Translations under genes and position numbers: made by a program
The notes under the pieces: generated by a model
What the model was told of the DNA's origin: nothing
Databases searched by the model: none
The model's input: the letters and a program-made list of their open reading frames with translations, nothing else
Shown here: in pieces, positions 4,871-39,829 of the stretch
How the letters are laid out: every line of letters begins with the position of its first letter
How positions within the stretch are numbered: position 1 is the first letter of the stretch
DNA from: Mobula hypostoma
Taxonomy: Eukaryota
Length of the DNA: 64,000 bases
Assembly (NCBI RefSeq): GCF_963921235.1
Contig: NC_086108.1
Location: 60,948,001 to 61,012,000 of the forward strand
Direction of reading: 5' to 3'

Positions 4871-5374
4871 TATCATAGAATATAGAATAGTAAAGCACAT
4901 TACAGGTCCTTCGGCCCACAATGTTGTGCCGACCCTCAAACCCTGCCTCCTATATAACCCCCACAATAAATTCCTCCATATACTTGTCTAGTAGTCTCTT
5001 AAACTTCATGAGTGTATCTGCCTCCACCACTGACTCAGGCAGTGCATTCTACGCACCATCCACTCTCTGAGTAAAAAACCTTCCTCTAATATCCCCCTTG
5101 AACTTCCCACCCCTTACCTTAAAGCCATGTCCTCTTGTACTGAGCAGTGGTGCCCTGGGGAAGAGGCGCTGGCTATCCACTCTATCTATTCCTCTTATCT
5201 TGTACACCTCTATCATGTCTCCTCTCATCCTCCTTCTCTCCAAAGAGTAAAGCCCTAGCTCCTTTAATCTCTGATCATAATGCGTACTCTCTAAACCAGG
5301 CAGCATCCTGGTAACACACATCAAAGTTGCTGGTGAACGCAGCAGGCCAGGCAGCATCTCTAGGAAGAGGTAGA

Positions 5375-5407
5375 GTCAACGTTTCGGGCCGAGACCCTTC
5401 GTCAGGA
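5375..5407 (-). ncRNA. Minimal hammerhead motif on the opposite arm (stem I truncated)
   Basis: Reverse strand reads TC-CTGACGA-A-GGGTCTCGGCCC-GAAA-CGTT-GAC; only about 2 bp of stem I remain. Confidence 0.55.
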
Positions 5408-5415
5408 ACTTCAGT

Positions 5416-5453
5416 TAGTCCTGACGAAGGGTCTTGGCTTGAAACGTCGACTA
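5416..5453 (+). ncRNA. Minimal type I hammerhead ribozyme motif (PLE-associated)
   Basis: TAGTC-CTGACGA-A-GGGTCTTGGCTT-GAAA-CGTC-GACTA: stem I TAGTC/GACTA, conserved CUGANGA and GAAA cores, palindromic ACGU stem III, GUC triplet; stem II is weakened to G-U pairs. Confidence 0.75.
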
Positions 5454-6019
5454 TACCTCTTCCTAGAGATGCTGCCTGGCCTGCTGCGTTCGTCAGTAAC
5501 TTTGATGTGTGTTGCTTGAATTTCCAGCATCTGCAGAATTCCTCGTGTTTAAGCATCCTGGTAAATCTCCTCTGTACCCTTTCCAATGCTTCCACATCCT
5601 TCCTATAGTGAGGCGACCAGAACCGGACACAGTACTCCAAGTGTGGCCTAACCAGAGTTTTATAGAGCTGCATCATTACCTCACGACTCTTAAATTCTAA
5701 CCCTCAACTTATGAAAGCTAACACCCCATAAGCTTTCTTAACTAGAAACTAGAAACCAGGAGCTTTCTTCTGGGAATGCAGCCAAACTGTATCTGAACAA
5801 CCCTTTCCTTAGAGGCTGCCTTTTGTTCCAGTAAAATCTTGCCGATTAACCTTTGACTGAAATTTACCTGAGCCAGCTTTGCTGAAACCACATTGAAATC
5901 ACTATCTTCCGAATATATTTGCACTCTGGACTGCTCTTTTATTTTAAAACAGCTAAGATAAATCTTATCATGTTATAATCATTACATCTTGGACACTCTA
6001 CTGACTACACCCCAGTTAT

Positions 6020-6270
6020 AAGTTAGATTAAATCTTTGTTTCCTGGAGCGTATGAGAATAAGGGGGAAGATTTGATGATTCTGAGCAGAATAGACAAGGC
6101 AAATGCAAGCAGCCTTTTTCCACTGAGCTCGGGTGAGACTAGAACTAGAGGTCATATGTGAAGGGTGAACGGTGAAATATTTAAGGGGAACATGAGGGGG
6201 ATCTCATTTACTCATACGGTGGTGGATATGTTAAAAACGCTGCCAGTGGAAGTAGTGGATGCATGTTTGT
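6020..6270 (+). mobile_element. CR1 3' fragment
   Basis: ACTAGAACTAGAGGTCAT...TTTAAGGGGAACATGAGG, similar to 1520-1580. Confidence 0.7.
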
Positions 6271-6356
6271 TTTAAAAAAAGGCAGAAAACGAGCATATTT
6301 GTGGATTCATAAACAGTGAGTACTGGGTGATAATCATAAATTTAAAAAGAGCAGAA

Positions 6357-7333
<977 letters not shown>

Positions 7334-7420
7334 TTATAAGGTTGATTATTGTTGCACCCTTGCCCTAAAGGACTGCAGCCATTCTTTTGCCTTTGGTCAT
7401 AACCCACGTATCTCACATAC

Positions 7421-7438
7421 GGGTGATAGCGGTGGGAT
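7421..7438 (+). promoter_or_regulatory. Degenerate tRNA-Leu primer-binding site
   Basis: GGGTGATAGCGGTGGGAT versus TGGTGGCAGCGGTGGGAT (complement of a tRNA-Leu 3' end), 3 nt after the LTR end. Confidence 0.6.
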
Positions 7439-10239
7439 GGCTAGTCTCAAAGGGATGCTTTCAATTCAGGGAAGATTGGGATTGCCGTCCCAAGTCAGGA
7501 ATCCCCCCACCTCCTGAAGTTTAAAATGAAACAGATGCCTGGGAAACAGTGGAGGCCTCAGGGGAGGAAAAACTTCAACCCAGGGCAGACTCAAACTCAG
7601 GCCAGAAACAAAAGGGCCTTCAAGTGGCACCACTTCCGAATCTTCCCTGGAATATCTATTCAGAGACTTTTTGTCTACCCAGCACAGGGCAGAAGATGCT
7701 TTTAAAAAGGAACTCCAAAGCCTGTGGAGGGGTCCCAAGATGCTTATCAACAAGGTGAAAATATTGGGAACTATCTCCTCAGGTTCGAGAGGAAGGCCCA
7801 GATATGGCAATGGCCCGAGGGAGGAGTGAGTCTGCTAGCTAGTGCTACTACTGACGGGTAAAGCTTTCAAAGCCTACACCGCAATGGATGAAGGTTCAAC
7901 AACTATATTGACCTGAAGGAGGCTGCTGACTAAATTTGATATCTTGACAGAAACCTATCATCAACACTTTCCTTCCAGTACACTACCACCCACTGAGATG
8001 TTTCATTGCCCGACGGGTCTCTACCACAGATAGATTTGACCACAGCAGATGCCTGAGGAGGAGATTGGGGAGGCCATTGTTCTGGAAGCTGCTGCAGGTT
8101 CTTCCTCCAGATGCCAGAACCCAGGTCTGAGAGCACGAGCCAGTGGATGGACATTGGTCCGACTTGCCCTGCAGTACCTGAATGACCACAAGGGGACAGC
8201 ATCACGACCATCATTCTGAAGCAACAGAGACTCTAACCCTCCATAGGACTCTCAGAGCAACTCTGTGGAACTGGGGAGTGGGAGAATGAGGACAAAGAAC
8301 CTTTGGTAGTTTTTTCTAAGACTTTTATTTGTTACCATTGTCAGCAGCCAGGTCATAAATCCTCTGTGTGTCCATTCAAGAAGCCCAATTTGTCAGGTAT
8401 GTGCTATGTACCAAGAAGTGGAGAATGTGATGATGATGATAATGACTGTAATGATGGTGATTATGGTAATGGAAACAAGCAGAATGTGAGGAGAAAGAGT
8501 CTTTATTTATTATAGTCAAAGTTAATGGAAAACCCATTAAAGCACCTTTAGATTCTGGTAACTCACTGCCATTCATTAAGAAAAATTATGCTCCTGCCTT
8601 TGGTGTTGACTGCAGTTACCAAACACCTATCCAATGTTTCCATGGTGACTGGAAGTCTGAGCCACTGACAGAACTCATTCTTGAGCCAGATGACCACAAG
8701 TACTTGTTGACAGTGGGGGTGCTGGAGAAACTATCAGTTGACATGGCTCTGGAGAGGGATTTGCCTGTTTTACATGAATTACTGAGGAAGGGAAATAGCC
8801 AATCACGTCCATCTGTTACTTTGAGAGTAGATAGTGCTGTTTCTTATTTTGTCATGACTCGTGTTGAAACCAAAGCAATGGACAGGTTACAAGCTCTGCC
8901 TGATTTGGATGCTAGTCTGTGCAAGGGAGGGACCAAAAGGCCTAGAAAGTCACACCAGCAATGGCACCTTGAGAAATACACCAGTATTCCTGCCTCTGTA
9001 CAATGGTGTACCCATTAAGGACAACTTGGAAGGGGTCGTGGAGGCCTGCAGGGTCCTGGGAACACTGACCTCTCCCATTTTGATGGCCGCCAACCAGTGG
9101 AGCTCTGGAAGGTGTTTGCTGACTTTCTACAGCTGTTCCAGCAGAGACCAGGACTAACAAAGGTCCTAAAACCTTCCGTCAGGATCAGACCTGAGCAGGG
9201 TTCAGTACGCCAACACTGCTACAGAGTGCCAGAGTGACTTGTGAGGTCCCTGAAGGATGAGATTCGAACCGTGCTGGAGCTGGGAGTCATCGAGCTTTCA
9301 AATAGTCAGTGGAGCTGTCCCCTCGTTATTGTCCACAAGAAGAATGGCACCCTGAGGGTATGCATTGATATCTGAAAGTTAAATGCCATTTCTTTTCTTG
9401 GTGCTTATGCACCACATTGATGACCTACTAGAAAGTACTGGACGGATTAACAACACTGGGCCTTTGCAAAGGCTACTGGCAGTTTCCCCTGGATGACCTA
9501 CCAGAACCCCTCTCTGCCTTCTGCACAACCCTTGGGGTCTGTTTCAGTTCACCGTGATGCCATTTGGTCTTCATGGTGCACCAGCAACTTTCCAGTGGCT
9601 GACGGACCAGGTGCTCCAATACCATGAGGACCACTGTGTGGCCTACCTAGGTGACGTAGTTATCTATAGCCAGACACGGTCAGAGCACTTGGGCCATCTG
9701 TATAGGATCCTGGGAGTTTTCCTGCTGTCGGTTCCACCCTCAATCTACAAAATTGTGAGTGGATGAAAAGGAAAACCAGATACCTTGGCTACCAGCTGGG
9801 AGATGGAGGGGATTGAGCACAGGTGGACAAAGTGGTAGCGACTGCAACAGTACTTGAACTCACACCAAGAAGGAAGTGAAGTGACGTGAAGTCCTTCCTG
9901 GGTCTGGTAGGGTGATATCGCAGGTTCATTTCCAAAATCAGTACTCTGGCCGCACCTCTGACTAATCTTACTGGGCAACCCCGTGATGTACAAAGTAGAC
10001 AAGTGAATGTGAAAACATTTTCCAAGCCCTTAAAGCTCAAAAATCTTCTTCACCAGTCCTTCAGAGCCCAGACTTTGATAAACTGTTCCTTTTCCAGGTG
10101 AATGCCTCAGGAGGAGGCATTAGAGCAGTGTTGGCCCAAGGAGAACCTGGAGAAGAGTGACCTGTCATTTACCAGAACTGAAAACTCCTCCCAAGGGAAA
10201 CCAGATATTCCACCATTATAAAATTAACCTGAACACTTC

Positions 10240-10470
10240 TGTTGTGCATTTAATATTTCAGTAATATTGTAAATATATTGTTTGATTTAAGCATTCTTTG
10301 TTTAAATAATTCATTCTGGGTTGTATGTAAAAGTACGTGGATAACATACATCATTACGTAACCAGGTCAGAGGTGCATGCCTCATTAAATGTAAAATGAA
10401 ACTAAAATGTGCATCACCCAGCTTTTTCTCTTTCAATTAGTTTTATGCTTTGGAGTTATAAAACATAACA
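10240..10470 (+). mobile_element. Solo LTR (Gypsy type)
   Basis: TGTTGTG...CATAACA termini; flanks ACTTC/ACTTT (5-bp TSD, one mismatch). Confidence 0.7.
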
Positions 10471-11119
10471 ACTTTTTAGTAATCCTTCACCCATTCTGCA
10501 TTTAATCCTATACCTTATAACACTATTATCCTATAATCAGTAGACATTTGGAAAAGTATGGTACCCCACCATAACTACCCAATAAATACCCGATAAACAT
10601 CCACCTGTCTGTAACCTCTCTGCACATTTGCTGCTCCATAGGTCACCCATAGAATACGTCCGGCAATGTATTGTTCCTTGTCCTATTTTTTGCTTCCAAT
10701 CAAACAGATTATTTTCTGATGCTTCCATGCCATGCTCTCTCTCCAGCACAATTACATTTTCCTTCATCATCTCTGCTAAGCCTCCCTCCTTCTTTCATTC
10801 CCTAGCCTTCCTTTTAAAGGAAATTTTGCTTCAGAGTGAAAAATACACTCCAAGGAGTTGTTTGGCACAAATCATCAGGCTAAATTGGGCAGGCTGTGAA
10901 CAGATCCAGCAGCTCAGGACAGGACCTGGCCTCCAGGATGTGTTGTGGACCATCAGAATTTCACTTCGCTTCCAACCTGGGACATCATGGCCCAGACTAT
11001 CGGCCTCTCTAACCATCACCATCAAACCAGCAGATTAACACTGACTTAGTGAAGATTGTAGGAGTAGCACCACACATACCTCAGAATGAGGGGTCAGTCT
11101 GGTGAAGCTGCAAGACAGG

Positions 11120-11348
11120 TGTGGTAAACCATGTATATATGTTGTAACTCGGTTACCTGTCTGGACACACCCCTCTGCTGACTGCCCCTGTGGCTCCTCC
11201 CACAGAATCCTGTATAAAGGTGTTCGCCTTACCCCTCCCCCTCAGTCCGGGGGCAGACACTCACTGTGGAGGTCGTATTGTACAGCGAATAAAAGCCTTT
11301 CAGTATTTTATCAAACCTCAGTCTTTTGGAGTAATTGAAGGTGCTTCA
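11120..11348 (+). repeat. 5' LTR
   Basis: Direct repeat of 15353-15581; TATAAA at 11213; AATAAA at 11288. Confidence 0.95.
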
Positions 11349-11374
11349 ATTTTATTCGCTGTATGTTTTAAAAC

Positions 11375-14300
11375 ATGGAACAGGCCCTGAGACCAGAAAA
11401 ATTAGACCTCAATCCGCAAACACCTGAAGCTGGAAACGCTTTCGAACTCTGGCTGGCCTGCTTCAAAGCGTATCTAGAGGAGATTAAAGCGACCGACCCC
11501 GTAGCGAAGCGCAGAGTTCTACTCTCCAGGGTCAGTCCACGGGTCTATTCGCTGATCAGAGACCAGCCGAACTACGACGGCGCAATGAACGCACTCAAAA
11601 AACAATACCTGCGGCCGATAAACAGCGTCTATGCTCAGCATCGCTTAGCGACACGGCAACAACGGTCCGGGGAATCGAGTGCTGAGTTTGTGCAGGCCCT
11701 ACAGACACTCGTGCGAGCCTGCAATTGCCAGGAGCTGACGACGGCGCAGCATGCAGAACTCCTAGTGAGAGACGCCTTCGTCACGGGGACCAGGTCAGTG
11801 TATGTGTGCCAGCGGCTGCTGGAAAAAGCCGATCTTACCCTAAGTTCGGCCATCGAGCTGGCTGATACGTTGGAGGCCGCTCTGCATAACTCCGAGGCTC
11901 TCCAGGCACGCGATCCCCCGATGGCCTCGTGAGCGCCACAGACCCCGCAACCTGCCGGCGAATCGACCTCGGCTGCAGCCAGTCGTGAGTCCGCGAAGTG
12001 CTACTTCTGCGGACTGGAGAAGCACCCCCGGAAACGCTGCCCGGCCCAACAAGCTACCTGCTCCAGCCGCGGAAAGAAGGGCCACTTCGCCAAGGTCTTT
12101 AAGTCAAAACCGCGAGCGGGATCGAGCAGCGCCGCGTGCGAGACGTGGGGGCCGCCATCTTCCCGGCACACTGCCACCACGTGCGAGACATGGGGGCCGC
12201 CATCTTCCCTGCACGCCGCCACCACGTGCAAGACATGGGGGCGGCCATCTTGGTCGACGCCACCTCCCACCGCCTATGACCAACGGGTGCTCACGGGCCA
12301 CCCCACCGCGCCGGACCAAGACAGCAACCCCACCCTGGCTTCCGTGACCCTCGACCAAAGCGCTCCCCACCAGCTCGCAAGGTCAATGATAGACATCCTG
12401 GTGGAGGGGTGCAGGACAAGCTGCCTGTTTGACACAGGCAGCACGGAGAGTTTTATCCACCCGGCCACGGTGCAGCATTGTGGACTCATGATACGGCCGG
12501 TAAGTCAGAGGGTCACCATGGCCTCCGGGTCGCATACAACAGACATCCGGGGAGGGGTTGTGTAGCGACGCTAGTGGTGCAGGGCACAGAATATCGGGAC
12601 TTTAAGTTACTGGTCTTGCCTCAACTGTGTGCCCCTGTGCTGTTGGGGTTGGACTTCCAGAGCCACCTGAAAAGCGTGACAATGGAGTATGATGGGCCCC
12701 TCCCACCAATTACTGTCATAAATCCCCAGTTTTGTAGAGATATGTCTCGTACCCTGCTACTGACCACACACACACACCGACCTGCGCATCCCACCCAACA
12801 CCATGCCAACTGCCACACTACCGACACCACTTGCGGCCTCTCCACCCTCAGGATCCCTCCCCCACCGCTGTTCACCAACCTGACCCCCGACTGTAAACCT
12901 GTGGCAACTAAAAGCAGGAGGTACAGCACGGGAGACAGAGCCTTCATTAAGTCGGAGGTGCAGCGACTGCTCAGGGAGGGGGTCATTGAGACAAGCACAA
13001 GTCCTTGGAGGGCGCAGGTGATCGTTGTTCGGAACGGGGAGAAGAATAGGATGGTCGTGGACTATAGCCAGACCATCAATAGGGTCATGCAGCTCGAAGC
13101 GTGCCCTCTACCCCGCATCGCGGATATGGTCAATCAGATAGCACAGTACAAGGTATACTCGACCATAGACCTAAAATCCGCCTACCATCAGCTCCCCATC
13201 CGCTGGGAGGACCGCCCTTACACTGCCTTCGAGGCGGACGGCAGGCTTTATCAATTCCTGCGCGTCCCCTTTGGTGTCACGAATGGTGTATCTGTCTTCC
13301 AGAGGGCAATGGACCGGATGGTGGACTAGTGCCAACTGAAGGCCACGTTCCCATATCTGGATAACATCACCATCTGCGGTCACCACCGGCAGGATCACGA
13401 CAACAACCTCCAAAAATTTCTCCAAGCGGCCAAATCTTTCAACCTCACCTATAACAAGTGTGTATTTGGGACCACCCGACTTGCTATCCTTGGGTGTGTC
13501 GTGGAGAATGGAGTCATTGGCCCTGACCCCGACCGTATGCGGCCCTTGTTGGAACTCCCTCTTCCCAATACCCTCAGTGCCCTCAAAATGTGCCTGGGCT
13601 TCTTTTCATATTACGCCCAATGGGTCTCTAACTATGCAGACAAGGCCCACCCCCTGGTCAAGTCCACCACATTCCCCCTCTCTGCCGAGGCCCACGCGGC
13701 CTTCAACCGCATAAAAGGGGACACGCCAAAGCAGCAATGCATGCGGTGGATGAGGCCATTCCCTTCCAAGTAGAGAGTGACGCCTCCGACTTTGCGCTGG
13801 CTGCCACCCTCAACCAGACAGGAAGACCAGTGGCGTTCTTCTCCCGAACCCTTCAAGGCCCTGAAATTCGGCACTCTGCGGTAGAGAAAGAGGCCCATAG
13901 TGGAAGCTATTAGGCACTGGAGGCACTATCTTGCCGGCAAAAGGTTCACCCTGCTAACTGACCAGCGCTCAATCGCATTCATGTTTAATAATCAGCAGCG
14001 GAGCAAAATCAAAAATGATAAAATTCTGAGGTGGAGAATTGAACTCTCCACCTACAACTATGACATCATGTACAGGCCTGGGAAGCTCAACGAGCCCTCC
14101 GATGCCCTATCCCGGGGAACATGCGCCAGCGCGCAGATCGACCGGCTATATGCCCTACATGTAGACCTTTGCCACCCGGGAGTTACCCGGATTTTCCACT
14201 TCGTGAAAGCCCGGAACCTGCCTTACTCCCTTGAGGAGATCAGGACGATGACCAGGGACTGCCAAGTCTGCGCAGAGTGCAAACCGCACTTCTACTGACC

Positions 14301-15284
14301 CAAAAAGGCACCACTCATCAAAGCCACCCGCCCCTTTGAGCGATTGAGTGTTGACTTTAAGGGCCCCCTTCCCTCCACCGACCGCAATGTGTACTTTCTT
14401 AATGTAATTGACGAGTACTCGCGGTTCCCCTTCGCCATCCCCTGCCCCGACACCACTACCACGTCAGTTATAAAAGCCCTGCGCAAGCTCTACACTCTGT
14501 TCGGATACCCATGCTATATCCACAGTGACAGAGGGTCCTCGTTTATGAGTGACGAGCTGCGCCAATATCTACTGGCTAGGGGAATTGCAACCAGTAGGAC
14601 CACGAGCTATAATCCCGGGGGAATGGACAGGTGGAGAAGGAGAATGGCACAGTGTGGAAAGCCACACTCTTAGCCCTCAGGTCAAAGGGACTGCCGGTCT
14701 CCCGCTGGCAGGAGGTCCTTCCTGAGGCACTCCACTCCATCCGCTCCCTGTTATGCACAGACACCAATGCCACCCCTCATGAGCGGCTCTTTTCTTTTCC
14801 CAGAAAGTCGACCACTGGAACCACCCTACCATCTTGGCTGACGTCTCTGGGGCCAGTGCTGCTCCAGAAACATGTGAGGAGCAATAAATACTCCCCGATA
14901 GTCGAGAGGGTTCACTTACTTCATGCGAACCCCCAGTATGCCTACGTGCTTTTACCTGATGGGCGGGAGGACACTGTCTCCATCCGCGACCTAGCGCCCG
15001 CAGGAGCACCGAGCCCCTACCCTGAACACTCTGTGGTGACTATTGACCCCGTACCCACCAATGTATGTACCTACGAGACACCGTGCACCCCAAACCCTAT
15101 ACAGACACCACACGACACTCCCACACCGGGCGCGACGCACACGCACGAGGGATTACCGACGCCTAACGCGCTGGCACCTGAAGTCAGGCCGGAGCCAGTA
15201 CAACCGCCATCGCTGGTGCAATCACCACTGGTGCTACGTAGATCACAGCGACGGACTCGACCGCCCGATAGACTTAACCTGTAA
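11375..15284 (+). pseudogene. gag-pol polyprotein with several stops and frameshifts
   Basis: Gag 11375-11932; zinc knuckles CYFCGLEKHPRKRC and TCSSRGKKGHFAK at ~12000-12100; LFDTGSTESF protease; RT (SPWRAQV, IDLKSAYHQ, PFGVTNG, YLDN); RNase H (SDASDF, LTDQR); integrase (HPGV..CQVC, SVDFKGP, HSDRGSSF, EKENGTVWK). Confidence 0.93.
12135..12252 (+). repeat. 45-bp tandem repeat (~2.6 units) between gag and protease
   Basis: CGTGC(G/A)AGAC.TGGGGGC.GCCATCTT starts at 12135, 12180 and 12225. Confidence 0.9.
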
Positions 15285-15352
15285 ATATACTTCTTGTAAA
15301 TATTGTCAGTCACTTCACCCCGCGGGACTCTTTTTTAAAAAAGGAGGGTGAA

Positions 15353-15581
15353 TGTGGTAAACCATATATATGTTGTAATTGGGTTACCTGTCTGGACACG
15401 CCCCTCTGCTGACTGCCCCTGTGGCTCCTCCCACAGATTCCTGAATAAAGGTGATTTCGTCTTGCCCCTCCTCCTCAGTCCAGGGGCAGACACTCACTGT
15501 GGAGGTCATATTGTACAGCGAATAAGCGCCTTTCAGTATTTTACTAAACCTCAGTCTTTTGGAGTAATTGAAGGTGCTTCA
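15353..15581 (+). repeat. 3' LTR
   Basis: Direct repeat of 11120-11348, preceded by a polypurine tract. Confidence 0.95.
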
Positions 15582-15829
15582 ACAAGATTGTTTGCATGCC
15601 AAACAAGAAAGAACATGCAACAGGCAGAGCTCAGTGATACTAGAACAAACAGATCAGATCCAAGATCTGCAATCCTGCATTGTCCAGCCATGAATGGTTG
15701 TGAACAAACTATCCAGTGAAGGAGTAGGCTCCACAAATATGACCTTTCTCAGCAATGGGGTAGAGCAAAACATCAGTGCAAAAGACAAAGCCAAAGGATT
15801 GACAAGAATCTTCAGCCGGAGTGTCTAAG

Positions 15830-18190: not shown

Positions 18191-18364
18191 TTTGTGAATC
18201 TTTGCAAGATGAAAATTTTCTTCATGAGATCAAATGCCACTCGTATTTAAGTGACTGTTCCCCTTGTTACTGTAACAGGGCTGAAAATACCAACTCCTAA
18301 TATCTAGGTTCACTACCCAGGTGGGAGCTTTCTATGAAATTCAAAGAAGGCATGGAAGTGACCT

Positions 18365-18599
18365 TAAAAACGGAAACACGAGGAAACCTGCAGATGCTGG
18401 AATTTCAAGCAACACACATCAAAGTTGCTGGTGAACGCAGCAGGCCAGGCAGCATCTCTAGGAAGAGGTACAGTCATTGTTTCGGGCCGAGAACCTTTGT
18501 CAGGACTAACGAAGGGTCTCGGCCCAAAACGTCGACTGTACCTCTTCCTAGAGATGCTGCCTGGCCTGCTGCGTTCACCAGCAACTTTGATGTGTGTTG
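18365..18599. mobile_element. Palindromic PLE mini-insertion #2
   Basis: Arms ~18410-18508 and ~18509-18599; tail on the left; flanks ATGGAAGTGACCT (18352-18364) and ATGGAGGTGACCT (18600-18612), a 13-bp TSD with one mismatch. Confidence 0.9.
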
Positions 18600-21467
18600 A
18601 TGGAGGTGACCTGTGCACTTTGTACTGTACCATTTCTATGTGTGCATGTTATTAACTTTTTACCCTTAATTCACAAGGTTGATGCAAATTTTAATATTTC
18701 AAGTAAATTTTACACAAATATTCATTTACTGTCACAATCAATAAATGGCTCTGTTTCCTCAGTATTGGATTATCAACATACAAGCCAAGTATGTATGGTC
18801 AAGTGTCACTTCTATGGAAAATGCCGTTCTTAAGGTTAAGTTTTCATTCCTGTGAACGGTTTATTCAGTTATTTCTTTTCTGATAAAATCTACTCTTGAC
18901 CTGACAATCCACATTGTTATTTCCTTTCCCCTTTCTGTTTCCTTGCACTGAACATTCTGTGTAACGATTACACTACGTTCTGCATTATGATATCGGTTTT
19001 CCCTTGCACTGATTGATGAAATGGTCTGTGTGTATGGCATGCAAAGTAAAGTTTTTCACTGTCCCTTGATACAAGTGACAATAATAAATCAATATATATA
19101 TATAAATAATGTGGCCATAGGAGCAGCTCAGAGCGTAACGAATCCTTGTGAGTAACTTACTTCCCAACTTCCCAAAGCCTCTCCACCATCTACAAGGCTC
19201 AGGTCAGAACTGTGCTGGAATACACTCCAGTTGCCTGGATGAGTGCATCGTCAACAACATTCAGGAAGCTGAACAGTACACAGGATATAGTAGTCAGCTT
19301 GACAGGCACCTCATTTACAACCAGTCACTCCAACCACAACGCACAGTAGCAGCAGTCTGCACCGTCTACAGGATGCACTGCAGTAACTCACCAAGACTCC
19401 TTAGACAGCACCTTCTAAACCCACAACCTCAATCAGCTGGAAAAGCACGGGGACACCACCACATGAACATTACTCTATCAGCCACTCACCATCGAGACTC
19501 AGAAATATAACACTGTTCCTTCCTAAGTGTATTGTGGGTACACCCACTCCTCAAGGATTTACAGTGGTTCAATAAGACAGCTCAGCCCCACCTACTCTAA
19601 AGCAATTAGTGTTGGACAATTAACTTCTGGCTCAGCATGCAAAGCCTTTGCACATCCTTTAAATGAATAAAAAAAATGTTATCCAGGAATACTTTAGGAC
19701 CAAGTTTCTCTCAGTGCTGAGTTTCTGATATCACTCTATCATGTTTCCACAGTTACCCGCACCTGTGGTTTACAAGGGTAATTCACCACATACCACACAT
19801 TCAAAAACACATATAATGAACAAATTTAGTCATGTCATTTCTATTTTCATTTACTCCAGTAAAATCCTCACACTGGCCAAATTGAACACAAACTGCCTTC
19901 CCATTTCGTGTTCCTTCTTTTTAAAATCTTATCTTTTATCCTGACTCTGTCCGTACTTTCTGATGCATTCTAATGCTCGCGTACTCTGTCCCTCCCCTAC
20001 ACATTCTGTCCTGCACTACTTCTGTTTCCAGTATGAACGTGTGCCCTTCTGGATCTGCCCTCTGCCAAACTGGTTTTAAACCTCCCCAGCAGCACCAGCA
20101 AACTCTTCTGTGAAGGGTCCTGTTCCTGTTGAGTTGCTTTGTCGCTCCCGGCAACTGCGATAATAACAGTTCCAGGCCAAGCAGAGGGTTGGGGGTTTGT
20201 TTATTAGGGTTCGGGGAACAGCAGCCGTGGCCCAAAGAGCAGAGGGATAATGGAGGAAGGAAGAGCTGATCATAAAATACAGATCTTTCTTGGGTTACAA
20301 CACAGTTTAATTCCTGATAGCGGTTTGTAACCTGGACCATTAAGTCAGAAATGAAGGGGGAAAAAAAGTCGGTGGGAGAGAATCACAGAAAAAATTGTAA
20401 TGGGAGAGCGAGCAGTTGCAGGGAGAGTGGCCTCACGGACTCAGTCAAGTCTGCTCACCGTTCCTGGCCTTGTTCAGCTGTCAGAGCTTGGCGGCGGTGG
20501 TGGGGGTGGAGGACGAGGTGGAGACAAGAAAACACGTGGGAATATCTCAGCAGATTACTACTGCAGTCCTTGTAGTAAATCCATCCTATCAGTCTTGGGG
20601 GAACCAGTACCTTAGAGTGGAGCAGGAGAAATTTCAACAGTAGGCAACAAACCGCGACATATTTCATACTTCTCAATGCCACGGAAGACCATTCGGCCCA
20701 TTAGGACTATATCTGTTCTTAGATCAACTCCATTAGCCCATTTTTTCCTATTCTCGCAAAGTGGTCATTACTAATTTTCATCACATACGTCCCTCCCCCC
20801 CCACCCACCAACTACTTCATCCAGTCAGCTTTCCTTTTTAGATATTTTGCCTGTCATTTACAACAACCAATTAATCCACCAACCGCTGGAAGCTCATAGC
20901 ATTCTGGATATGTTTGTAAGTGAGGGAGAATATCTGTAGCTGCTGGAAATCTGTGATAATGACAAAAACCACCAGGGACACAGAAAGCGTGTGATGTGGG
21001 ATCATTGACCTAATCTGCAGAGGGTTTCTGAGACCGCACATGATGGAAATTTGGAATAAAACTTTGCAGTACACAGCGGCGAAGGCCTCAGAGAAATTCA
21101 GACACACTGCCAAAACTATCTACTAGTGATCATCTAGCGAATGGGATAACTACATACACTCATTCTATTCCTGGAGTTCCCAGAACTGATGGTCTCACTT
21201 AAGGGCTCTTTAACTTGTTATTTCATGCTCTCATTATTTATTGTCATTTATTTATATTTGCAACGCACAGTTCGTTCTATAGATTTGTTAAGTATGCCAG
21301 CAGATAAAGAACCTCAGGGTTATATGTGGTGACATGTACGTACTCTGATCATAAATTTTACTTTGAATTTCGGAATCTTTTTCGTGACTAACACCTCTCC
21401 TCATGCCCAACAACAGGTCTCAGGAGACTGTGAACTTTGCTACTAAAATCAAATTCATATATTCAAC

Positions 21468-29278: not shown

Positions 29279-30187
29279 TCTTGTTGAGGACTGAACATTC
29301 TGCCTCCGAGGGGATGGTGAAGACACAGCAGGAGATGGAGCTGGGGTCAACGTAGGGTAGAGGATTGGACCAGTCAGAGGACAGAGAAGGTTGGGCTATT
29401 CAGAGAAAATGGAGTGGGAGGGGGTCCCATGGAAGTAACAGGGCATAGATGGAAGCCTGAGAAACCAAGGATGGGTGGGAGGTAGTGGTAGAAGGAAAGG
29501 AGCAGTAGTCCTGATGCAGGGTCTCAGCCCAAAAATGTCAAATGTTTATTTTCCCATCCATAAATGCTTCCTGATTTGCTGAGTTCTCTAAACTGGTATA
29601 TGTAATTTTACCCCAGATTCTAGAATTATTTAATCTGTCAATTTACTTAATTTCTTCACACAGATTCAATAAAGATACTAGAACTGTATTCTCAGAAGCA
29701 AATACACAGATGGTAGCCTTGGTTAACTACAATTCTAATAGCAGTTTAAAAAATGAAGTTAATTTTCGTTTAATGCACTTGCAAAGTAAAGTGGATTTGG
29801 TTTTCATTTACATAAATGAAATTACAAGTAAAAATCCACAGGTAAATTTCTGCATTGTTGCTGATTACCATAAAGATATGGTTGAATCCCGCTAATGGAG
29901 ATTTCATTCCCAGCTCTATTAACTTCATTTTCGATTTTATTACTACAGACGTCCTGGTAAAGTAGATTTACAGGAAAGATAGCAAGTCACATGCAGTTAA
30001 CCAGTTATTAAAGCAATCCCTTGAAAAGAATTCTTGACAATAAATTTCAGTTTTGCTTTGAATAGATAAACACAATTACTTTAATTGAAAGTTGTGTTTA
30101 TATTGAGATCTGCTTAAAATTACGACTTAAGTCATTGATGCAGAACTATCACAAAGCGCGCTACAATTTTAATTTTTTTAAATTATT

Positions 30188-31819: not shown

Positions 31820-31995
31820 CTGAAATAAACTGCAGAAGTTGGAAATGTGAAATTAAACCACATACACTCAGCAGGTCAGGCAGCTCCTGTGGAAAGAGAA
31901 GCAGTTAGCATTCTGGGTCTGTGACTCTTCATCAGAAGGTAGAACTTAACTGTACATGCATTTGTTACATTATTGCAGGCATTGCCTTGACCTGC
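31820..31995 (-). mobile_element. Old PLE pLTR remnant with decayed hammerhead
   Basis: CTCAGCAGGTCAGGCAGC motif; reverse strand CTGATGAAGAGTC at 31935-31923. Confidence 0.55.
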
Positions 31996-31999
31996 AAGA

Positions 32000-32290
32000 G
32001 ATGAGTGAGATTTTAATGAATATTTCTCTACTTGCTTATTGAGGAGAAAATCGTGGTTGCTGAAGAGGTAAGGGTTACAAGTGGGGATATTTTGGAGGGC
32101 ATTCATATTACTAAACTGGAGGTACTCGTGGTCTTGCAGCTCAGTAAGATTGATAAATCCCCAGTATTTGACCAAGAGCATCCTCAGATTTTATGGAAGA
32201 CTAGAGAAGAATTTGCGGAGGACCTCGTGGAGATATTTCTTTCACCATTAGCACCCAAAGTTCCTGAAGATTGGCTGCAGTTTTCTGTTG
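32000..32290 (+). mobile_element. CR1 ORF2 middle fragment
   Basis: KIDKSPVFDQEHPQILWKTREE...VPEDW. Confidence 0.75.
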
Positions 32291-32434
32291 TTCTGGTTTA
32301 GCTAAACTCTTGTAGTATCTCATTTTTATAATTCTTTAGCCCATCCAGGATCTCAGCTGTATCTTTCTTAGCTTTTACATGAACAGCATTTTCATTGGTA
32401 AAGGCTAATACATTTAGTATATCAGCCATGTAGG

Positions 32435-33035
32435 GTGCAGACTAGACCCTACAGCCCGACTGACTGATACTAACCTAGCTGTTTATCTGAGTTAGTTCCA
32501 TTTGCCTCCATTTAGCCATAAAGGACTTTTCTATCCATGTACCTGTCCAAGTATCTTTAAAACATTCTAACTGCATCTGTCTCCACCACTTCATCTGGCA
32601 GCTCATTCCATATATCGACCACCCTCTGTGTGAAAAAGTTGCCTCTCAGATTCCTTTTAAATCTTTCCTCTCTCACCCTAACCTTATGCCCTCTTGTTTT
32701 AAGACTCCCAGGCCCTGAGAAAAAGACTGTGACCATTCATCTTATCTATGTCCTGATGATTTAATAATAATCAATAAAGTCACTCCTCAGCCTCCTGCAC
32801 TGCAGGGAAAAAAGCCCCAGACTTGCCAGTCTCTTCTAATAACTTAAGCCACATAGTTCTGGCAACATCCTCGTGAATCTCTTCTGCACTCTCTCCAGCT
32901 TAATAACATCCTTTTTATAGCTGGGCAACCAGCAACACACGTCACTATCTTGAATAGCTAGAACATGATGTCCCAACTCTATATTCAATGCCCTGAACAA
33001 TGAAGGCAAGCATGCAAACTGCCTTCTCCCATGTT
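32435..33035 (-). mobile_element. CR1 3' fragment
   Basis: KKDVIKLERVQKRFTRMLP. Confidence 0.8.
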
Positions 33036-33344
33036 CCAATCAGCATATTTTCTTTTCTTCTCTGCTCACAACTATTTCCTGTTTACATGCCAATAGAACG
33101 GTTTTGGATTCATTTTTATGTTTACAATTTTTACTCTGTTCTTTCTTTGCCTCTGAACATTTGTTAATTAGCCAAGTCTATATTTGTGTTCACAACCCAG
33201 CCTCTATCACAGATTCCTTTTGTTTTGTCCTATTGTGTTCTGTCATTCTGAAAGCTCTGGCTTTTAACTTCCTTACCCATCTCTGCAAATGGATTGTAGT
33301 TAGGATGTAGTTGACAATCTCCACCAACAACCTACATACATTTG

Positions 33345-33800
33345 TAGAGTCATAGAGTCCTACAGCATGGGCACAGGCCATTCAGCCCATCTAGTTTACC
33401 CAACCACCATTCCCATTTAAGCTAGTCCCATTTGTACATGTTTGGCCCATATCCTTCTAAACCTTTCCCACCGATGTATCTGTCCAAGTACCTTTTAAAT
33501 GTTAGTGCTTCAACCACTTCCTTTGGCTGCTCATTCTAAACACTGGCAACCCTCTGGGTGAAAGATTTGCCTTTCATATTCCTGTTAAATCTCTACCCTC
33601 TCACAATAAACCTATGTCATCTTGCTTTTGGTTCCTCAATGCTGCAAGAAAGTCTATGCCCATTGACCCTATCTATGTTCCTCATGATCTTATACACTCT
33701 GTAAGATCAGCCCTCATTCTCCTATGCTTCAGTGAAAGAAGTCTCAACCTGCTCAACCTCTGTCCATAATTCAGTCTCTTGAGTCCAAACAACATCCTTA
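33345..33800 (-). mobile_element. CR1 3' fragment
   Basis: CR1 3' UTR and ATAGAGTC tail repeats at ~33345. Confidence 0.7.
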
Positions 33801-34044
33801 TAATTGTATTCTTGCCAATATTCTTGTGTTCTTGTTCCAGCAAGGCAGTTCTATCATTGGATGCTCTGAGGATTCAATTGGGAGCAGCAGGGAGTTTGCC
33901 AACATGCTCGTTGTGAATTTATCTAAGTGGTTTGGAAGGCAGTCCATGATCAAGGAAAATTGTGTGAGGAGACTGCACTTCACAAAAATATCCTCAGGAG
34001 CTTCTGTGACCTTCAGAAAGATGACCTGCTGCTGTCATCCAAGT

Positions 34045-34640
34045 CATAGTTCACTACTGCATAGAAACAAGCCCTTCAGCGCATCAAGTCCATGCCAAAT
34101 TATTATTCTGTTGACCCTGTAACAGACCATCCAAACCCCTCCCATCCATGTACCTATTCGAATTTCTCTTAAATATCAAAATCAAACCATCCACCACTTC
34201 CACTGACCGCTCCTTCCTCACTCTCACCACCTTATGAGTGAAGAAGTTCCCTCTCATGCTCCCCTTAAACATTTCACATTTTACCTTTAACCCATGACAT
34301 CTAGTTCTAGTTTAATCAAACTGCAGTGTAAAAAGCCTGTTTGCATTCACCCATCATAGTTTTGTTAACCTCTGTCAAATCTTCTCTCCTTCTCCTACAC
34401 TCTAGGGAATAAAGTCCTAACATACTCAAACTTTCCTTATAACTCAAGTCCTGACAAAATCCTTGTAAACTTTCTTGGCACCCCTTCAATCTTATTGATA
34501 CCTTTCTTGTAAGTAGGTTACCACAATTCTCCAAGGTAGGCCTCACCAACATCTTACACAGTTTCAACATAACATCCCAACTCCCATACTCAATGCCTTG
34601 ATTTATGAAGGCAAATGTGCCAAAAGCTCTCTTCATTAAA
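34045..34640 (-). mobile_element. CR1 3' fragment
   Basis: AFGTFAFINQGIEY..LVRPTLE; FKGSMRGNFFTHKVVRV. Confidence 0.8.
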
Positions 34641-35257
34641 GTCAACTGTGCTGACTTTCTATTGCTCTGCGTTGTTTCTGGCTGGGATTATGGATATGTA
34701 TAGCACACTTTGCTCTTCCGGATGATGGCTGTTCATCCAGCTAGACATGACCTACATTAGGCAGCATGGAGGCACTGCTGCTTCTCATCAGATTGCTGGT
34801 CCCCCAAAACTGGTGAGACCCATGTTTCCTTCTGCCATGCAAGGAGCAGCAGCTCCCACCAAGTATAGGGAAAGGGGCTGGGAGTGGCTGGTCAGATGAT
34901 TGTGTAGTTAAAGTTGTGGTTAAAGTAGTGTGGTAGGGGGAAGAATTTTAAGCTTCTGGACCACTAGAACTGTTGCTGGGGAAGATGGGACCTTTACAAG
35001 TTAGACAGATTGCACCTGAAACAGAGTGGGGTCCAATATCCCAGCAGGAAGATTTGCTCATTGTGCTGGGCATGATTTAAACAAATATGGCTGGGTAAGT
35101 ATACAGTTATGGTGGGAGTGAAGTGGGGGGAGCTGCAGTCAAATGTAGAAAGAAATTGAAATCGACCTAGTATGTTGAGTAGGCAATAAGGCACATCTGC
35201 ATAATGCAAGGATAAATTGCATCTACCTGTAAAGAACCTGTAAATAAATGAAAAGAA

Positions 35258-37410
35258 TAGTCATAGTCATACTTTATTAATCCCGGGGGAAATTGGTTTT
35301 CGTCACAGTTGCTCCATAAATAATAAATAGTAGTAGAACCATAAATAGTTAAATAGTAATATGTAAATTATGCCAGTAAATTATGAAATAAGTCCAGGAC
35401 CAGCCTATTGGCTCAGGGTGTCTGACCCTCCAAGGGAGGAGTTGTAAAGTTTGATGGCCACAGGCAGGAATGACTTCCTATGACGCTCAGTGCTACATCT
35501 CGGTGGAATGAATCTCTGGCTGAATGTACTCCTGTGCCCACCAAGTACATTATGTAGTGGATGGGAGACATTGACCAAGATGGCATGCAACTTAGACAGC
35601 ATCCTCTTTTTAGACACCACCGTGAGAGAGTCCAGTTCCATCCCCACAACATCACTGGCCTTACGAATGAGTTTGTTGATTCTGTTGGTGTCTGCCACCC
35701 TCAGCCTGCTGCCCCAGCACACAACAGCAAACATGATAGCACTGGCCACCACAGACTCGTAGAACATCCTCAGCATCGTCCGGCAGATGTTAAAGGACCT
35801 CAGTCTCCTCAGGAAATAGAGACGGCTCTGGCCCTTTTTGTAGACAGCCTCAGTGTTATTTGACCAGTCCAGTTTATTGTCAATTTGTATCCCTAGGTAT
35901 TTGTAATCCTCCACCATGTCCACACTGACCCCCTGGATGGAAACAGGGGTCACCGGTACCTTAGCTCTCCTCAGGTCTACCACCAGCTCCTTGGTCTTTT
36001 TCACATTAAGCTGCAGATAATTCTGCTCACACCATGTGACAAAATTTCCTACCGTAGCCCTGTACTCAGCCTCATCTCCCTTACTGATGTATCCAACTAT
36101 GGCAGAGTCATCCAAAAACTTATGAAGATGACAAGACTCCGTGCAGTAGTTGAAGTCCGAGGTGTAAATGGTGAAGAGAAAGGGAGACAAGATAGTCCCC
36201 TGTGGAGCCCCAGTGCTGCTGATCACTCTGTCGGACACACAGTGTTACAAGCACATGTACTGTGCTCTGCCAGTCAGGTAATCAAGAATCCATGATACCA
36301 GGGAAGCATCCACCTGCATCGCTGTCAGCTTCTCCCCCAGCAGAGCAGGGCGGATGGTGTTGAATGCACTGGAGAAGTCAAAAAACATGACCCTCACAGC
36401 GCTCGCTGGCTTGTCCAGGTGGGCGTAGACACGGTTTAGCAGGAAGACGATGGCGTCCTCAACTCCTAGTCGGGGCTGGTAGGCAAACTGGAAGGGATCT
36501 AAGTGTGGCCTGACCATAGGCCGGAGCAGCTCCAGAACAAGTCTCTCCAGGATCTTCATGATGTGGGAGGTCAATGCCACCGGTCTGTAGTTGTTGAGGC
36601 CACTGGGGCGCGGCGTCTTCGGCGCAGGGACGAGGCAGGACGTCTTCTGCAATACAGGAACCCTTCGGAGCCTCAGACTCAGGTTGAATACATGGCGAAG
36701 TACTCCACATAGCTGAGGGGCACAGGCTTTGAGCACCCTGGTACTGACACCATCCGGTCCTGCAGCCTTGCTTGGGTTGAGACGTTTCAGCTGTCTTCTC
36801 ACCTGTTCAGCTGTGAAGCCCACCGTGGTGGTTTCATGTGGGGAAGGGGTATAGTCATGAGAGCAGGGTGGGGGACTGTGAGGAGGGGTAGGAGGGGAGA
36901 GTGGAATATGTGTTGGTTGGGGGACGACAACAGATGGCTCATGTGTGGGATGGGCAGGGGCCACACTGTCAAATCTGTTAAAGAACAGGTTAAGTTCATT
37001 GGCCCTGTCCACACTGCCTTCCGCTCCTCTGTTGCTAGTTTGCCGGAACCCAGTGATGGTCCTCATCCCACTCCAGACCTCTCTCATGTTGTTCTGCTGG
37101 AGTTTCCACTCAAGCTTCCTCCTGTACCTGTCCTTAGCCTCCCTGATCCTGGCTTTCAGGTCCCTCTGTATTGCCCTCAGCTCCTCCCTATTTCCATCTC
37201 TAAACGCCCTCTTTTTAGCGTTTAGGATGTCCTTAATGTCCTTTGTCACCCATGGCTTGTTATTTGAATAACAAAAGACAGTTCTTGTTGGAACCTTGCA
37301 GTCCACACAGAAGTTGATATAATCGGTGGTGCACTCTGTGAGCCAATCAATATCCTCTCCATGTGGCTCACAGAGTGCCTGCCAGTCTGTCACCTCAAAA
37401 CAACCCTGGA
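35258..37410 (-). mobile_element. Young Rex1/Babar LINE, 5'-truncated, RT nearly intact
   Basis: ORFs 37393-36245 and 36238-35405 share one frame separated by a single TAA; YRPVALTS, FFDFSSAFNTI, GAPQGTILSP, KFLDDSA; (ATGACT) tail. Confidence 0.95.
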
Positions 37411-37764
37411 GAATCTGACTAGTAAAACAGATGGACAGAGCATTGATCAGACTAACTGGATCTCCTTAGCCATCGATCAGTTGCAAAGTTGGGCAAAGTA
37501 TTTGCAGATGGGTTGATGCACTTTGGTAAATCAGATAGGGGTAGGACATGCGCTCTATTAGTAAATGGTAAAACACAAAGGAATAGCTCCTTGAAAGTAG
37601 CAACCCAGGCTGATGGGATGGAGTCTAGAATTTTAAAAAATGGGATGTCATGTTGCAGCTTCACAAGATTGGTTTGATGTCTCAGTGTATTGTGTACAGT
37701 CCTGGTTGCCACACTACAGGAATGATGAGATTATACAGTACTGGAGAGAGAACAGAGGAGATTT

Positions 37765-38056
37765 ATTTTTGATTTATTTTATTTAGAGAAACAACAAAGA
37801 ATAAGCCCTTCCAGACCTTCGAGCTGCACCACCCATCAACCCCCATTTAACTCTAGTTAAATATACAATGACTAATTAACCTACTAACCAGTATGCCCCT
37901 GGACTGTGGGAGGAAACTGGAGGACCTGAAGAAAACCCATGCATTCCAAGGGGAGGACATACAGACTCCTCATAGAGGAGGTTAGAATTGAACACCGAAC
38001 TCCGATGCCCTGAGACATAATAGCGTTGTGTTAATCACTACACTACCATGGTGCCC
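37765..38056 (-). mobile_element. tRNA-derived V-SINE/HE1-like SINE
   Basis: Homologous to 30188-30462 (GGGCACCATGGTAGTGTAGTGATTAA...GTTCAATTC). Confidence 0.78.
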
Positions 38057-38333
38057 AAAAAGAGATTCACCAACCCTTGGCAGCTAAACACCCTGTGAAC
38101 TACCAGCAGGACATTGCTTGGATTGGCAAGACTTTAGTTATGGGAACAAATTGGAGACCTGGGTTTGCTTTTGCCAAAGGAAAAGAGGTTGAGGGGTAAC
38201 AAGAAAGAGGTATATAAAATAAAAGAGGTATAATTCTAGTGGACATTGAGTAGATGGTGCTCATCTTCCTGATTATCCTTCCAGAACAAAGTACATCCAC
38301 TGCTTTGTTCTTTGAGCTGTCCATCTTTAGTTT

Positions 38334-38540
38334 TGCAAACAACAGGAATTCTGCAGATGCTGGAAATTCAAGCAACACACATAAAAGTTGCTGGTGAACG
38401 CAGCAGGCCAGGCAGCATCCCTAGGAAGAGGTGCAGTTGATGTTTCAGGACGAAGGGTCTCGGTCTGAAACGTCAACTGCACCTCTTCCTAGAGATGCTG
38501 CCTGACCTGCTGCGTTCACCAGCAATTTTTATGCGTGTTG
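38334..38540. mobile_element. Palindromic PLE mini-insertion #3
   Basis: Arms ~38373-38448 and ~38465-38540; junction inside the hammerhead; perfect 13-bp TSD CCATCTTTAGTTT at 38321-38333 and 38541-38553. Confidence 0.92.
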
Positions 38541-39829
38541 CCATCTTTAGTTTGTTGTGTTCCTCTCAGTGTGGTATCTCAGTAAAATGGAGCCTGAGTC
38601 ACTGAACAATAATAATGGAACAATTATCATGTTTCTCTTTGGTGAGTCTATTCACTTGGCTCTTGACATTCTTGGTCCTGAACTTCATAGTGAAGAGTGG
38701 ACGCGGCCTGTGTGTGATTTCTTCTTACAGGGCATGGCCATCGCAGAGCAGCCCAAACTTGAGAAACCAAGGTCTTAATCCAATGGTCAATGGGATACAA
38801 AATGATTAGAGACCAGTTTCAGCTGTGTGGGTGTTAACTTATGAAGGCACGCCCTCTGAAAGATGCCCAGCCTCTGACTTTGGACATCACTAGTTTCAAT
38901 GTAATAAAGATTTTAAGTGCAAACCAATCTGGTGAGTGTTATTATAAACACAATTTATTCAGAATACATAACATGTTGGTTACACAAGCAGAAACACTTA
39001 ACCATGTTTGACTTCATTGGGCAGATCATGAGCAGCTATGGTTTACTTTTCTATCCTTCTTGGAAGCCAAAAAGGAAATCAATGTTCAACACCTGTGTAA
39101 GCGCAGTCTCGGGCTAGCTGATATATATATATACTTCTTCACCATATTTTCCTTGTATACTTCCCTTATTTTATATCTGTCCCGATCCACTTCTTGTTTT
39201 CTAAAAGTCCAGGTATCACGTACTTTGAGGTTTTGCAAAATGTCTAAAAATATGCATTCGTGTTCTTGATGAGCTAGCTGTCTCATTTCCTAATTTTGAC
39301 AATCACTTACCCTTTGGATCTATTAGTTTTAGCACTATATTGTTTGAAGATCTTCTTCATAGAAAATCCGTGGTTATTCGGTGTTGTACTTTTGGCGCAC
39401 TTCTCTGGGAGAAAATCTTAATTAAATATTATATTAAATATATTGGCATAAGATTTACATTAAAGACTGATTACACATCAAAAGAATTAATATTTTGTTT
39501 TTCAAAAGTAAGTTTCAACCTTGAAGAATTACATTTTGCAATGGCATTGTGCAATATTGCTTGTATTTTCTAGTTATTGAATAGTTCTTGCCTAGAAGTT
39601 CATAATAGTGACAAGATATTATACTCTGCCTCTGCATTTTGTTTCATTGAAAACAATTGAATACATTTTGTAGGTAGAATACAACACACAGATGTATATG
39701 ACATGCTCAGCTTCACCAACTAGGAATGACTTTATTGGCATTAATTTCCAGTGAACAACTGTATACATTACACCTCTTGTGCAGCTGGTCATCCCTCCTT
39801 TGCATACTCTCACAGGCATAGGTTGGAAG

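Follow-up and report, generated by a model that had tools for sequence, protein, structure and literature searches.

How the junctions of short palindromic insertions arise, and whether a ribozyme motif at their centre sets their structure, is a question raised by a 64,000-nucleotide stretch of the Mobula hypostoma genome (contig NC_086108.1, positions 60,948,001 to 61,012,000; hereafter the window). A first-pass annotation of the window had attributed three such insertions to a Penelope-like element (PLE), in which reverse transcription from both target strands stops or switches at a hammerhead ribozyme after a fixed 13-nt staggered cut. We followed their sequence through 3.48 Gb of the genome. 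The insertions are probably minimal products (stubs) of a Neptune/Nematis-type PLE, in which cDNAs primed on both strands of a staggered cut would run off the 5′ end of an RNA. A hot spot at which copies end lies at the foot of one hammerhead helix.

Palindromic insertions in the window

Positions within the element are given as a coordinate, c, relative to the predicted hammerhead cut site, with +1 the first base past GAAACGUC; core C3 is then at -27, and the 5′ strand of helix I, at -32 to -28, pairs with +1 to +5. The three palindromes of about 210–240 bp lie where the first-pass annotation had placed them, each between 13-bp direct repeats, that is, target site duplications (TSDs). Each consists of two inverted copies (arms) of a pseudo-long terminal repeat (pLTR), one with a tail and one without. 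All three are real, but the list was one short: a fourth copy, with a single arm, had been overlooked.

5302..5314, no strand: left TSD of element 1, 13 bp; its last 2 nt also fit the arm end
5313..5407, minus strand: tailless pLTR arm of element 1, c +65 to -29
5409..5550, plus strand: tailed pLTR arm of element 1, c -39 to +102
5421-5448 and about 5515-5550, plus strand: minimal hammerhead core and tail of element 1, within the tailed arm
5552..5564, no strand: right TSD of element 1, identical to the left 13-mer; occurs once in the host repeat's other members
7157..7256, plus strand: single tailless arm (fourth copy), c -32 to +67, flanked by an 8-bp repeat
18352..18364, no strand: left TSD of element 2, 13 bp, one mismatch to the right copy
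18368..18510, minus strand: tailed arm of element 2, c +108 to -34, 2 nt common to the other arm
18509..18599, plus strand: tailless arm of element 2, c -24 to +66
18600..18612, no strand: right TSD of element 2
38321..38333, no strand: left TSD of element 3, 13 bp
38335..38453, minus strand: tailed arm of element 3, c +104 to -14, 5 nt common to the other arm
38449..38541, plus strand: tailless arm of element 3, c -25 to +67
38541..38553, no strand: right TSD of element 3

The TSDs enclose 237, 235 and 207 bp in elements 1, 2 and 3, respectively. Tailless arms end on the outside at +65 to +67 and tailed arms at +102 to +108, and the 5′ ends of the arms (-29/-39, -34/-24 and -14/-25) lie inside the hammerhead motif or at most 12 nt from C3, which agrees with the earlier description of the central junctions. 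Element 1 interrupts a host repeat; its 13-mer occurs just twice in the window and once only in the other copies of that repeat (43 loci), giving a paralogous empty site. A paralogous empty site was also looked for in the case of elements 2 and 3, and none was found. Older, diverged kin of the same pLTR are present at 29508, 51850 and 62440 on the plus strand and at 2646, 24011 and 31823 on the minus strand of the window; those on the plus strand likewise start at about c -30.

An Rfam scan of the window returned no hammerhead family match. We rejected a microRNA identity, as the matches to mir-5681 and mir-4716 fall far below gathering score and reflect the palindromes. The mir-5681 model fits a palindrome centre (window 5364-5462), under gathering score, and stubs of this kind are mistakable for microRNA hairpins.

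The parent is a Penelope-like element

Most of the best arm matches run on upstream into a reading frame with a GIY-YIG domain. The parent unit is 3,515 nt long, and its open reading frame (ORF) of about 1,016 codons starts about 37 nt past the tail. The ORF contains DKG and YIDD motifs, a CX4CxxC linker and a GIY-CxxC-YIG nuclease, with two cysteines between GIY and YIG (CCHH finger). One copy (L154) matches RVT_1 (E 1.8e-5) and GIY-YIG (E 1e-3), both under the Pfam cut-off, and another (L007) matches GIY-YIG above it (E 4e-6). Endonuclease-containing (EN+) PLEs are defined by features that include the DKG motif and two cysteines between GIY and YIG, and the Neptune and Nematis clades carry a CX2-5CxxC linker between reverse transcriptase and endonuclease (PMC8557442). 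Here we found a single ORF with reverse transcriptase and C-terminal GIY-YIG domains, the DKG and the CCHH cysteines, together with partial tandems that form pLTRs (L155 and L157; the tail-to-ORF tandem junction has 421 matches genome-wide) and an inverted 5′-truncated copy plus a tail of about 36 nt at one end (77 pairs). Judged by these sequence features, the parent is a young EN+ PLE, of Neptune/Nematis type by its linker, with the two clades left undivided. Its arms are abundant: one 31-mer has 42,070 exact matches and a looser pattern 101,214, or about 100,000 arms genome-wide.

The two full-length copies L155 and L157 are on different contigs, and their upstream truncated copies begin at most 6 nt apart, about 1,060 nt before the tail end; L155 has a separate stub with its own duplication immediately past its 3′ end. 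Four further copies (L265, L277, L296 and L313) have in common an internal ORF duplication, from about c 989 back to 781, which assigns them to a single source lineage.

Base counts from 90 long arms, compared with the published consensus (PMC4209133), contain the core CUGANGA, an extra base, helix II, GAAA, a palindromic helix III, UH and helix I. The motif is thus a minimal type I hammerhead by core and helices, and its self-cleavage is a prediction.

Arm ends pile up at the 5′ foot of helix I

We sampled 180 loci anchored on exact outer-arm 31-mers, which are neutral as to the junction, plus the window, which one of the loci adjoins. The 30 initial loci and 50 loci chosen by ORF were left out as biased. 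The sample yielded 301 arms, of which 14 were dropped before counting as older, diverged families; the 287 young arms comprise 77 head-to-head pairs, 107 singles and 26 unclassed arms (censored or with an incomplete partner) that enter all-arm rates only. End positions were set by profile realignment. A peak at -28 was discarded because it stemmed from a base private to the reference copy.

Of 223 arms at risk, 83 end in -36 to -24, a rate of 28.6 per 1,000 nt compared with 1.0-1.5 upstream of -100. The pile-up is about 20-fold, sits 30-31 nt ahead of the cut site, where helix I has its 5′ edge, drops sharply beyond that edge, and is present in singles (30/91) as in pairs (51/111). Exact genome-wide counts, for which bases were added upstream stepwise, fall from 101,214 at -21 through 86,959 (-27), 80,823 (-29), 77,303 (-30) and 70,884 (-31) to 65,067 (-32), 63,185 (-33), 61,370 (-34) and 57,396 (-36). 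Once a mutation control of 1.46% per base is subtracted, the excess loss per base is 1.5% at -21 to -27, 6.9% at -30 and at -31, and 1.4-1.9% thereafter. Removal of chance matches leaves true ends of about 9% at -30, 7% at -31 and about 0 at -32, and about 69% of the arms that reach -21 go past -36. These counts cover -21 to -36; the shoulder further upstream comes from the sample. We conclude that the hot spot is sharp and marks the 5′ foot of helix I, and that most arms end elsewhere. Junctions are therefore not spread evenly along the element, and the proposal that arms end at the hammerhead is supported as regards a strong pile-up and not supported as regards the cut site, since only seven of 259 arms end within -2 to +3.

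Among the matches listed, the best-supported 5′ loose ends of contigs from sequencing runs lie at c -31/-30 in three of four runs (of 22); these repeat the junction hot spot in other samples and are no evidence on RNA starts.

We also considered splicing. A branch-point-like motif, a pyrimidine tract and CAG occupy c -52 to -34 (for example L270:1351-1369), directly before helix I. A spliced upstream exon was rejected as the cause of the hot spot, as singles at -28 to -35 mostly abut the TSD without common filler, and no linear spliced copy was identified among the copies examined. A stop at a lariat branch point at -46 was likewise discarded: sequence leaps away from -46/-47 in three of the jump loci described below, but first-pass ends have no peak there.

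Roadblock or RNA end

Copies that cross the ribozyme twice distinguish a stop on the template from the end of the template. We examined 90 tandem-junction loci from the 421 matches. At 50 loci with a long or full unit downstream, 36 copies reach -24 and only two stop in -36 to -24, so that stops occur in 2/36 second passages compared with 83/223 first passages (p = 8e-5). By this result the ribozyme is no general stop. With some 69% of arms running past it as well, the earlier proposal that reverse transcription stops or switches at the ribozyme is not supported as it stood.

At 25 of the 90 loci (30 junctions), the sequence jumps from a position x in the pLTR or 3′ untranslated region to a point at 135-1,390 in the start of the ORF and then passes tail and ribozyme again. 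The position x is exactly -31 in six loci and -32, with 1-nt microhomology, in one more; jumps from -31/-32 often carry 3-10 untemplated bases and once an A run. By a list compiled by hand, copying finally ended no more than 8 nt from x at 11 of the 25 loci, short of x at 12 and beyond it at two (0/100,000 permutations). Among 16 loci with x outside the hot spot, six repeat a private position, for example -155/-153, -71/-69 and +15/+15. Private ends that recur within one insertion are to be expected of a physical RNA end; a stall would not predict them. The sequences thus favour run-off from an RNA that begins at the edge of the ribozyme.

An improbable alternative is that a folded or protein-clamped hammerhead stops or switches reverse transcription on a longer RNA and thereby sets arm length. 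The hot spot does coincide with the 5′ strand of helix I, and a clamp present only on the priming pLTR would account for the free passage of long copies through the upstream ribozyme. In PAc, a Poseidon element of Anolis carolinensis, the ribozyme requires protein for cleavage, so protein contacts the region, yet hammerhead mutants left the in vitro product size unchanged (PMC11167929). A block would be expected at the fold entry (+5 to -8), around the cut site, where the end rate is just 4.2-4.4 per 1,000 nt. Nor does it fit private ends that recur far from the ribozyme, or the six crossings of the ribozyme in the two arrays described next.

Circle-like arrays

Two loci on different contigs contain tandem arrays with a junction of another kind. 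Locus L321 (G000:C2:157816563-157817513) has four identical +276/-33 junctions, and locus L355 (G000:C50:58412485-58412815) has the same junction twice in tandem; its six genome matches are confined to these two loci. The repeat unit is 310 bp (pLTR plus ORF start). GT follows the donor side and CAG precedes the acceptor side, before which are a pyrimidine tract and, by the general consensus, a branch-point-like motif. The flanks of the arrays are not the same, and a separate short duplication accompanies each array; the arrays also differ at 4-5 of 310 bases, start at different reverse transcription sites (+66 and +102) and end in different phases. The simplest reading, likely although thin at two loci, is that they are rolling-circle copies of a back-spliced circular RNA, primed internally and with the ribozyme uncut. 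For either locus alone, the array may have arisen by later tandem duplication in DNA.

Retrozymes are non-coding units between direct hammerhead repeats that spread via ribozyme-made circles. We rejected this identity for the stubs, which are inverted and derive from a coding PLE; the circle-like arrays occur at two loci only and have a splice-type junction.

Each pair joins a tailed and a tailless arm

In all 77 pairs, one arm is tailed and the other tailless. The outer ends, earlier described as constant, form bands at +57 to +74 and, with the tail, at +91 to +114. Repeats of at least 11 bp flank 71 of 77 pairs, compared with 4 of 552 shuffled flank pairings. The commonest TSD lengths are 13 (19 pairs), 14 (26) and 15 (12); with chance extension allowed for, they fit 43-59% of 13 and 25-41% of 14. 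A fixed 13-nt stagger is rejected at chance-match rates of 0.25 and 0.30 but not at 0.35. The uniform 13-bp TSD first proposed thus holds for elements 1–3, and the stagger is narrow, but the wider sample fits 13-14 nt.

Junctions are diverse, with 75 different coordinates in 77 pairs: 24 have 2-5 nt of microhomology, 14 are blunt or have 1 nt, and 39 contain filler. In a few pairs (L083, L080 and L237) the microhomology is that of helix I, with one arm near -31 and the other near +1. In only 45 of the 77 pairs do both arms begin at c -45 or downstream of it; arm lengths form a continuum that reaches up to 2.2 kb into the ORF. With the parent identified and the junctions this varied, the first-pass annotation was right to treat the insertions as independent PLE integrations and not as copies of one miniature inverted-repeat transposable element (MITE). 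Copying from both target strands, which it also proposed, fits the 77 tailed-plus-tailless pairs and the lack of polarity in arm length, the tailed arm being longer in 30 pairs, shorter in 45 and equal in two.

The two arms of a pair are related, in favour of a template end common to both. Their 5′ ends correlate (rho 0.64, p 5e-10), and both extend beyond -60 in 18 pairs compared with 6.6 expected. Kinship, judged by the concordance of subfamily bases, is high: arms agree in 59 of 65 pairs at +18 (random 32), 65 of 69 at +28 (47) and 65 of 74 at +56 (52).

This kinship would also fit fold-back, in which a single cDNA, or an antisense template, would prime its own copying and so yield the mirror arm, as suggested for rotifer Penelope elements; self-priming of an antisense template has been proposed there (PMC3846280), and two junctions (L094 and L220) have the palindromic ACGU of helix III at their centre. 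We nevertheless give it a slim chance. Either arm may be the longer, filler takes the place of homology at 39 junctions and about one pair in ten mixes subfamily types. Fold-back also gives no reason for the second arm to end, without exception, at the second start site of reverse transcription.

Template ends made by self-cleavage of the ribozyme are very unlikely. The motif does conserve the minimal type I hammerhead core and its helices (PMC4209133), and a few arms begin at +1 to +4, but the seven ends near the cut site are set against 259 arms, x is at +1 in 0/30 jump junctions, and Anolis RNA-seq lacks reads ending at the cut site (PMC11167929).

Equally hard to credit is that post-insertion collapse of long unstable palindromes shaped the junction positions. 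Long near-perfect inverted pairs exist and could extrude, and pairs are on the whole shorter than singles; against this, single-arm copies have the same hot spot, its edge is sharp to one base, and direct-orientation jump junctions use that base. That the palindrome itself was the amplified unit, as in a MITE or a self-copying ribozyme mini-element, is suggested by terminal inverted sequence, short size and narrow TSD length but has negligible probability given 75 distinct junctions, arms extending into the ORF and a one-sided tail; the copies have neither common internal sequence nor equal termini, and MITE membership was rejected.

Proposed mechanism

The parent element, the tail asymmetry, the TSD lengths, the junction diversity, the hot spot with its sharp upstream edge and the repeated jump ends were observed directly, and the following steps are proposed to connect them. 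The reverse transcriptase–endonuclease, as a dimer, would cut both target strands 13-14 nt apart. Priming would take place at about +102 (the tail site) for one cDNA and at about +66 (the inner site) for the other. Each would be extended to the 5′ end of its template, usually one RNA for both or two sister RNAs, and this short template RNA would most often begin at -31/-30, at the foot of helix I. The cDNA 3′ ends would then be trimmed and joined head to head by end-joining, with microhomology or filler, which would make each junction unique. Loss of the second cDNA, or its trimming down to a few bases, would leave a single-arm copy, and template RNAs that reach further upstream would give long arms. 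After run-off, the reverse transcriptase may sometimes jump to the RNA 3′ end and go round again. The hammerhead is likely copied uncut.

The -31/-30 end could, with about even chances, be a transcription start or the edge of a protein-bound RNA trimmed from 5′ to 3′. In favour of a transcription start, the bases, with A at -31, fit an initiator consensus. The Penelope element of Drosophila virilis, which speaks for the same option, is described as having an internal promoter in its pLTR (PMC2377424). The trimmed edge is favoured by long copies that do not start there, by the lack of an extra G and by other x values trailing upstream. The idea that the ribozyme determines insertion structure thus finds no support in the sense of a stop for reverse transcription, and may survive in the sense of a boundary if its fold is a nuclease-protected edge.

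Several points weigh against dual priming with run-off at an RNA end. The RNA 5′ end is deduced from DNA, and the sequencing runs contained contigs only. No excess of G precedes -31, unlike a copied cap (A 37, C 36, G 27 in the first 100 of 5,817 matches), and a cap-copied G at the hot spot was rejected on that ground. Only two of 50 long copies start at -31, where an RNA beginning there predicts more; this needs the extra assumption of seamless transfer to the downstream pLTR, or of an end found only on the protein-bound pLTR. Two of the 25 jump loci extend far beyond x, and paired arms disagree at subfamily sites in 6/65 and 9/74, so the template is not always one. Only 49 of 107 single-arm copies have a TSD of at least 11 bp within 14 nt of the arm. 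The 287 arms, anchored on exact 31-mers, come nearly all from the start of one contig, and the deconvolution of ends assumes uniform per-site mutation rates.

A fuller scheme, which we offer as tentative and rather doubtful, has the PLE dimer package short RNAs with a fixed 5′ end, located where the uncut hammerhead has its foot. The dimer would prime the two strands of the 13-14 nt break from two fixed internal sites and, after run-off, could jump to the RNA 3′ end or roll round a back-spliced circle. If so, the pLTR would act like a retroviral R region, with strong-stop cDNA and transfer, the inverted copies, tails and tandems would fall into one scheme, and the ribozyme would serve as a structural boundary instead of a cutter.

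Other features of the window

Direct repeats of ~250 bp, 4.23 kb apart, flank protease and reverse transcriptase frames at 11134-15618 and mark a long terminal repeat retrotransposon. Two inverted reverse transcriptase fragments of the long interspersed nuclear element type, at 46690-47870 and 58177-59357, are 97% alike over 1,181 nt. A frame on the minus strand at 62529-63149 has an env-like match (TLV_coat, E 1.2e-6) and is probably an endogenous retrovirus remnant.

Comparison with known systems

The published insertion unit of EN+ PLEs consists of a 5′-truncated copy, an adjacent inverted copy and a 30-40 bp tail at one end (PMC8557442, PMC3846280). The Mobula hypostoma family resembles it in its head-to-head inverted pLTRs, one-sided tail, TSD, partial tandems and variable 5′ truncation. 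It goes beyond the anatomy described in those sources in the tail on exactly one arm of all 77 pairs and in a truncation hot spot sharp to one base, and differs from the rotifer examples (8-10 bp TSDs) in its 13-14 nt stagger. Where the rotifer paper reads palindromes as self-priming (PMC3846280), our data favour dual priming.

In vitro, PAc cuts and extends both target strands, is predicted to be a dimer and starts reverse transcription at two internal sites bounding the tail, with ribozyme cleavage dispensable (PMC11167929). Two internal starts around the tail, extension of both strands and sequence downstream of the tail on the template are common to both systems; PAc, of the Poseidon clade, has an ORF from helix II, whereas here the ORF starts past the tail and has a CX4CxxC linker. 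The available text on PAc does not treat cDNA joining, stagger length, 5′ ends or jumps (PMC11167929).

Like metazoan PLE hammerheads, the motif has an extra base after A9, a helix III without a loop (palindromic ACGU) and a short helix I (PMC4209133). The same source describes opposite-strand motif pairs 100-700 bp apart and proposes a circular template; in its model the ribozyme cuts and ligates the circle, whereas the arrays here have GT-AG back-splice boundaries and a ribozyme that appears uncut. According to that source, an intron of D. virilis Penelope stops where helix I begins, and in the present family splice-acceptor-like sequence occupies this place. Earlier work thus already describes truncated copies in inverted orientation, tails on one side and minimal hammerheads, among them pairs on opposite strands, while the origin of PLE inverted copies, tails and pLTRs has been termed undefined (PMC8557442) and the role of PLE hammerheads an open question (PMC4209133, PMC11167929). 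The literature covered, mostly open-access main texts, contained nothing that maps PLE 5′ ends to the hammerhead, reports back-spliced templates or gives strict tail asymmetry, repeated-end jumps or these counts.

About 100,000 young natural products form a dense record that makes the PLE copying cycle testable. For the in vitro system, the proposed steps predict that each strand is copied from a different start site, that the stagger is 13-14 nt, that stubs are run-off products of the -31/-30 RNA end, that the ribozyme is copied uncut and that circular templates made by back-splicing are used. In annotation, PLE stub is the proper label for such palindromes, in place of MITE or microRNA hairpin.

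Outside PLEs, second-strand priming makes an inversion in the twin priming of L1, R2 jumps from a 5′ template end to a 3′ end with untemplated bases, and retroviral strong-stop DNA is a short cDNA begun internally and ended where the RNA begins. In L1 the inverted part is a different one, further upstream in the RNA, whereas here both primers would copy the same 100-140 nt from fixed internal starts; and unlike retroviral strong-stop synthesis, the copying proposed here involves no tRNA primer and no integrase.

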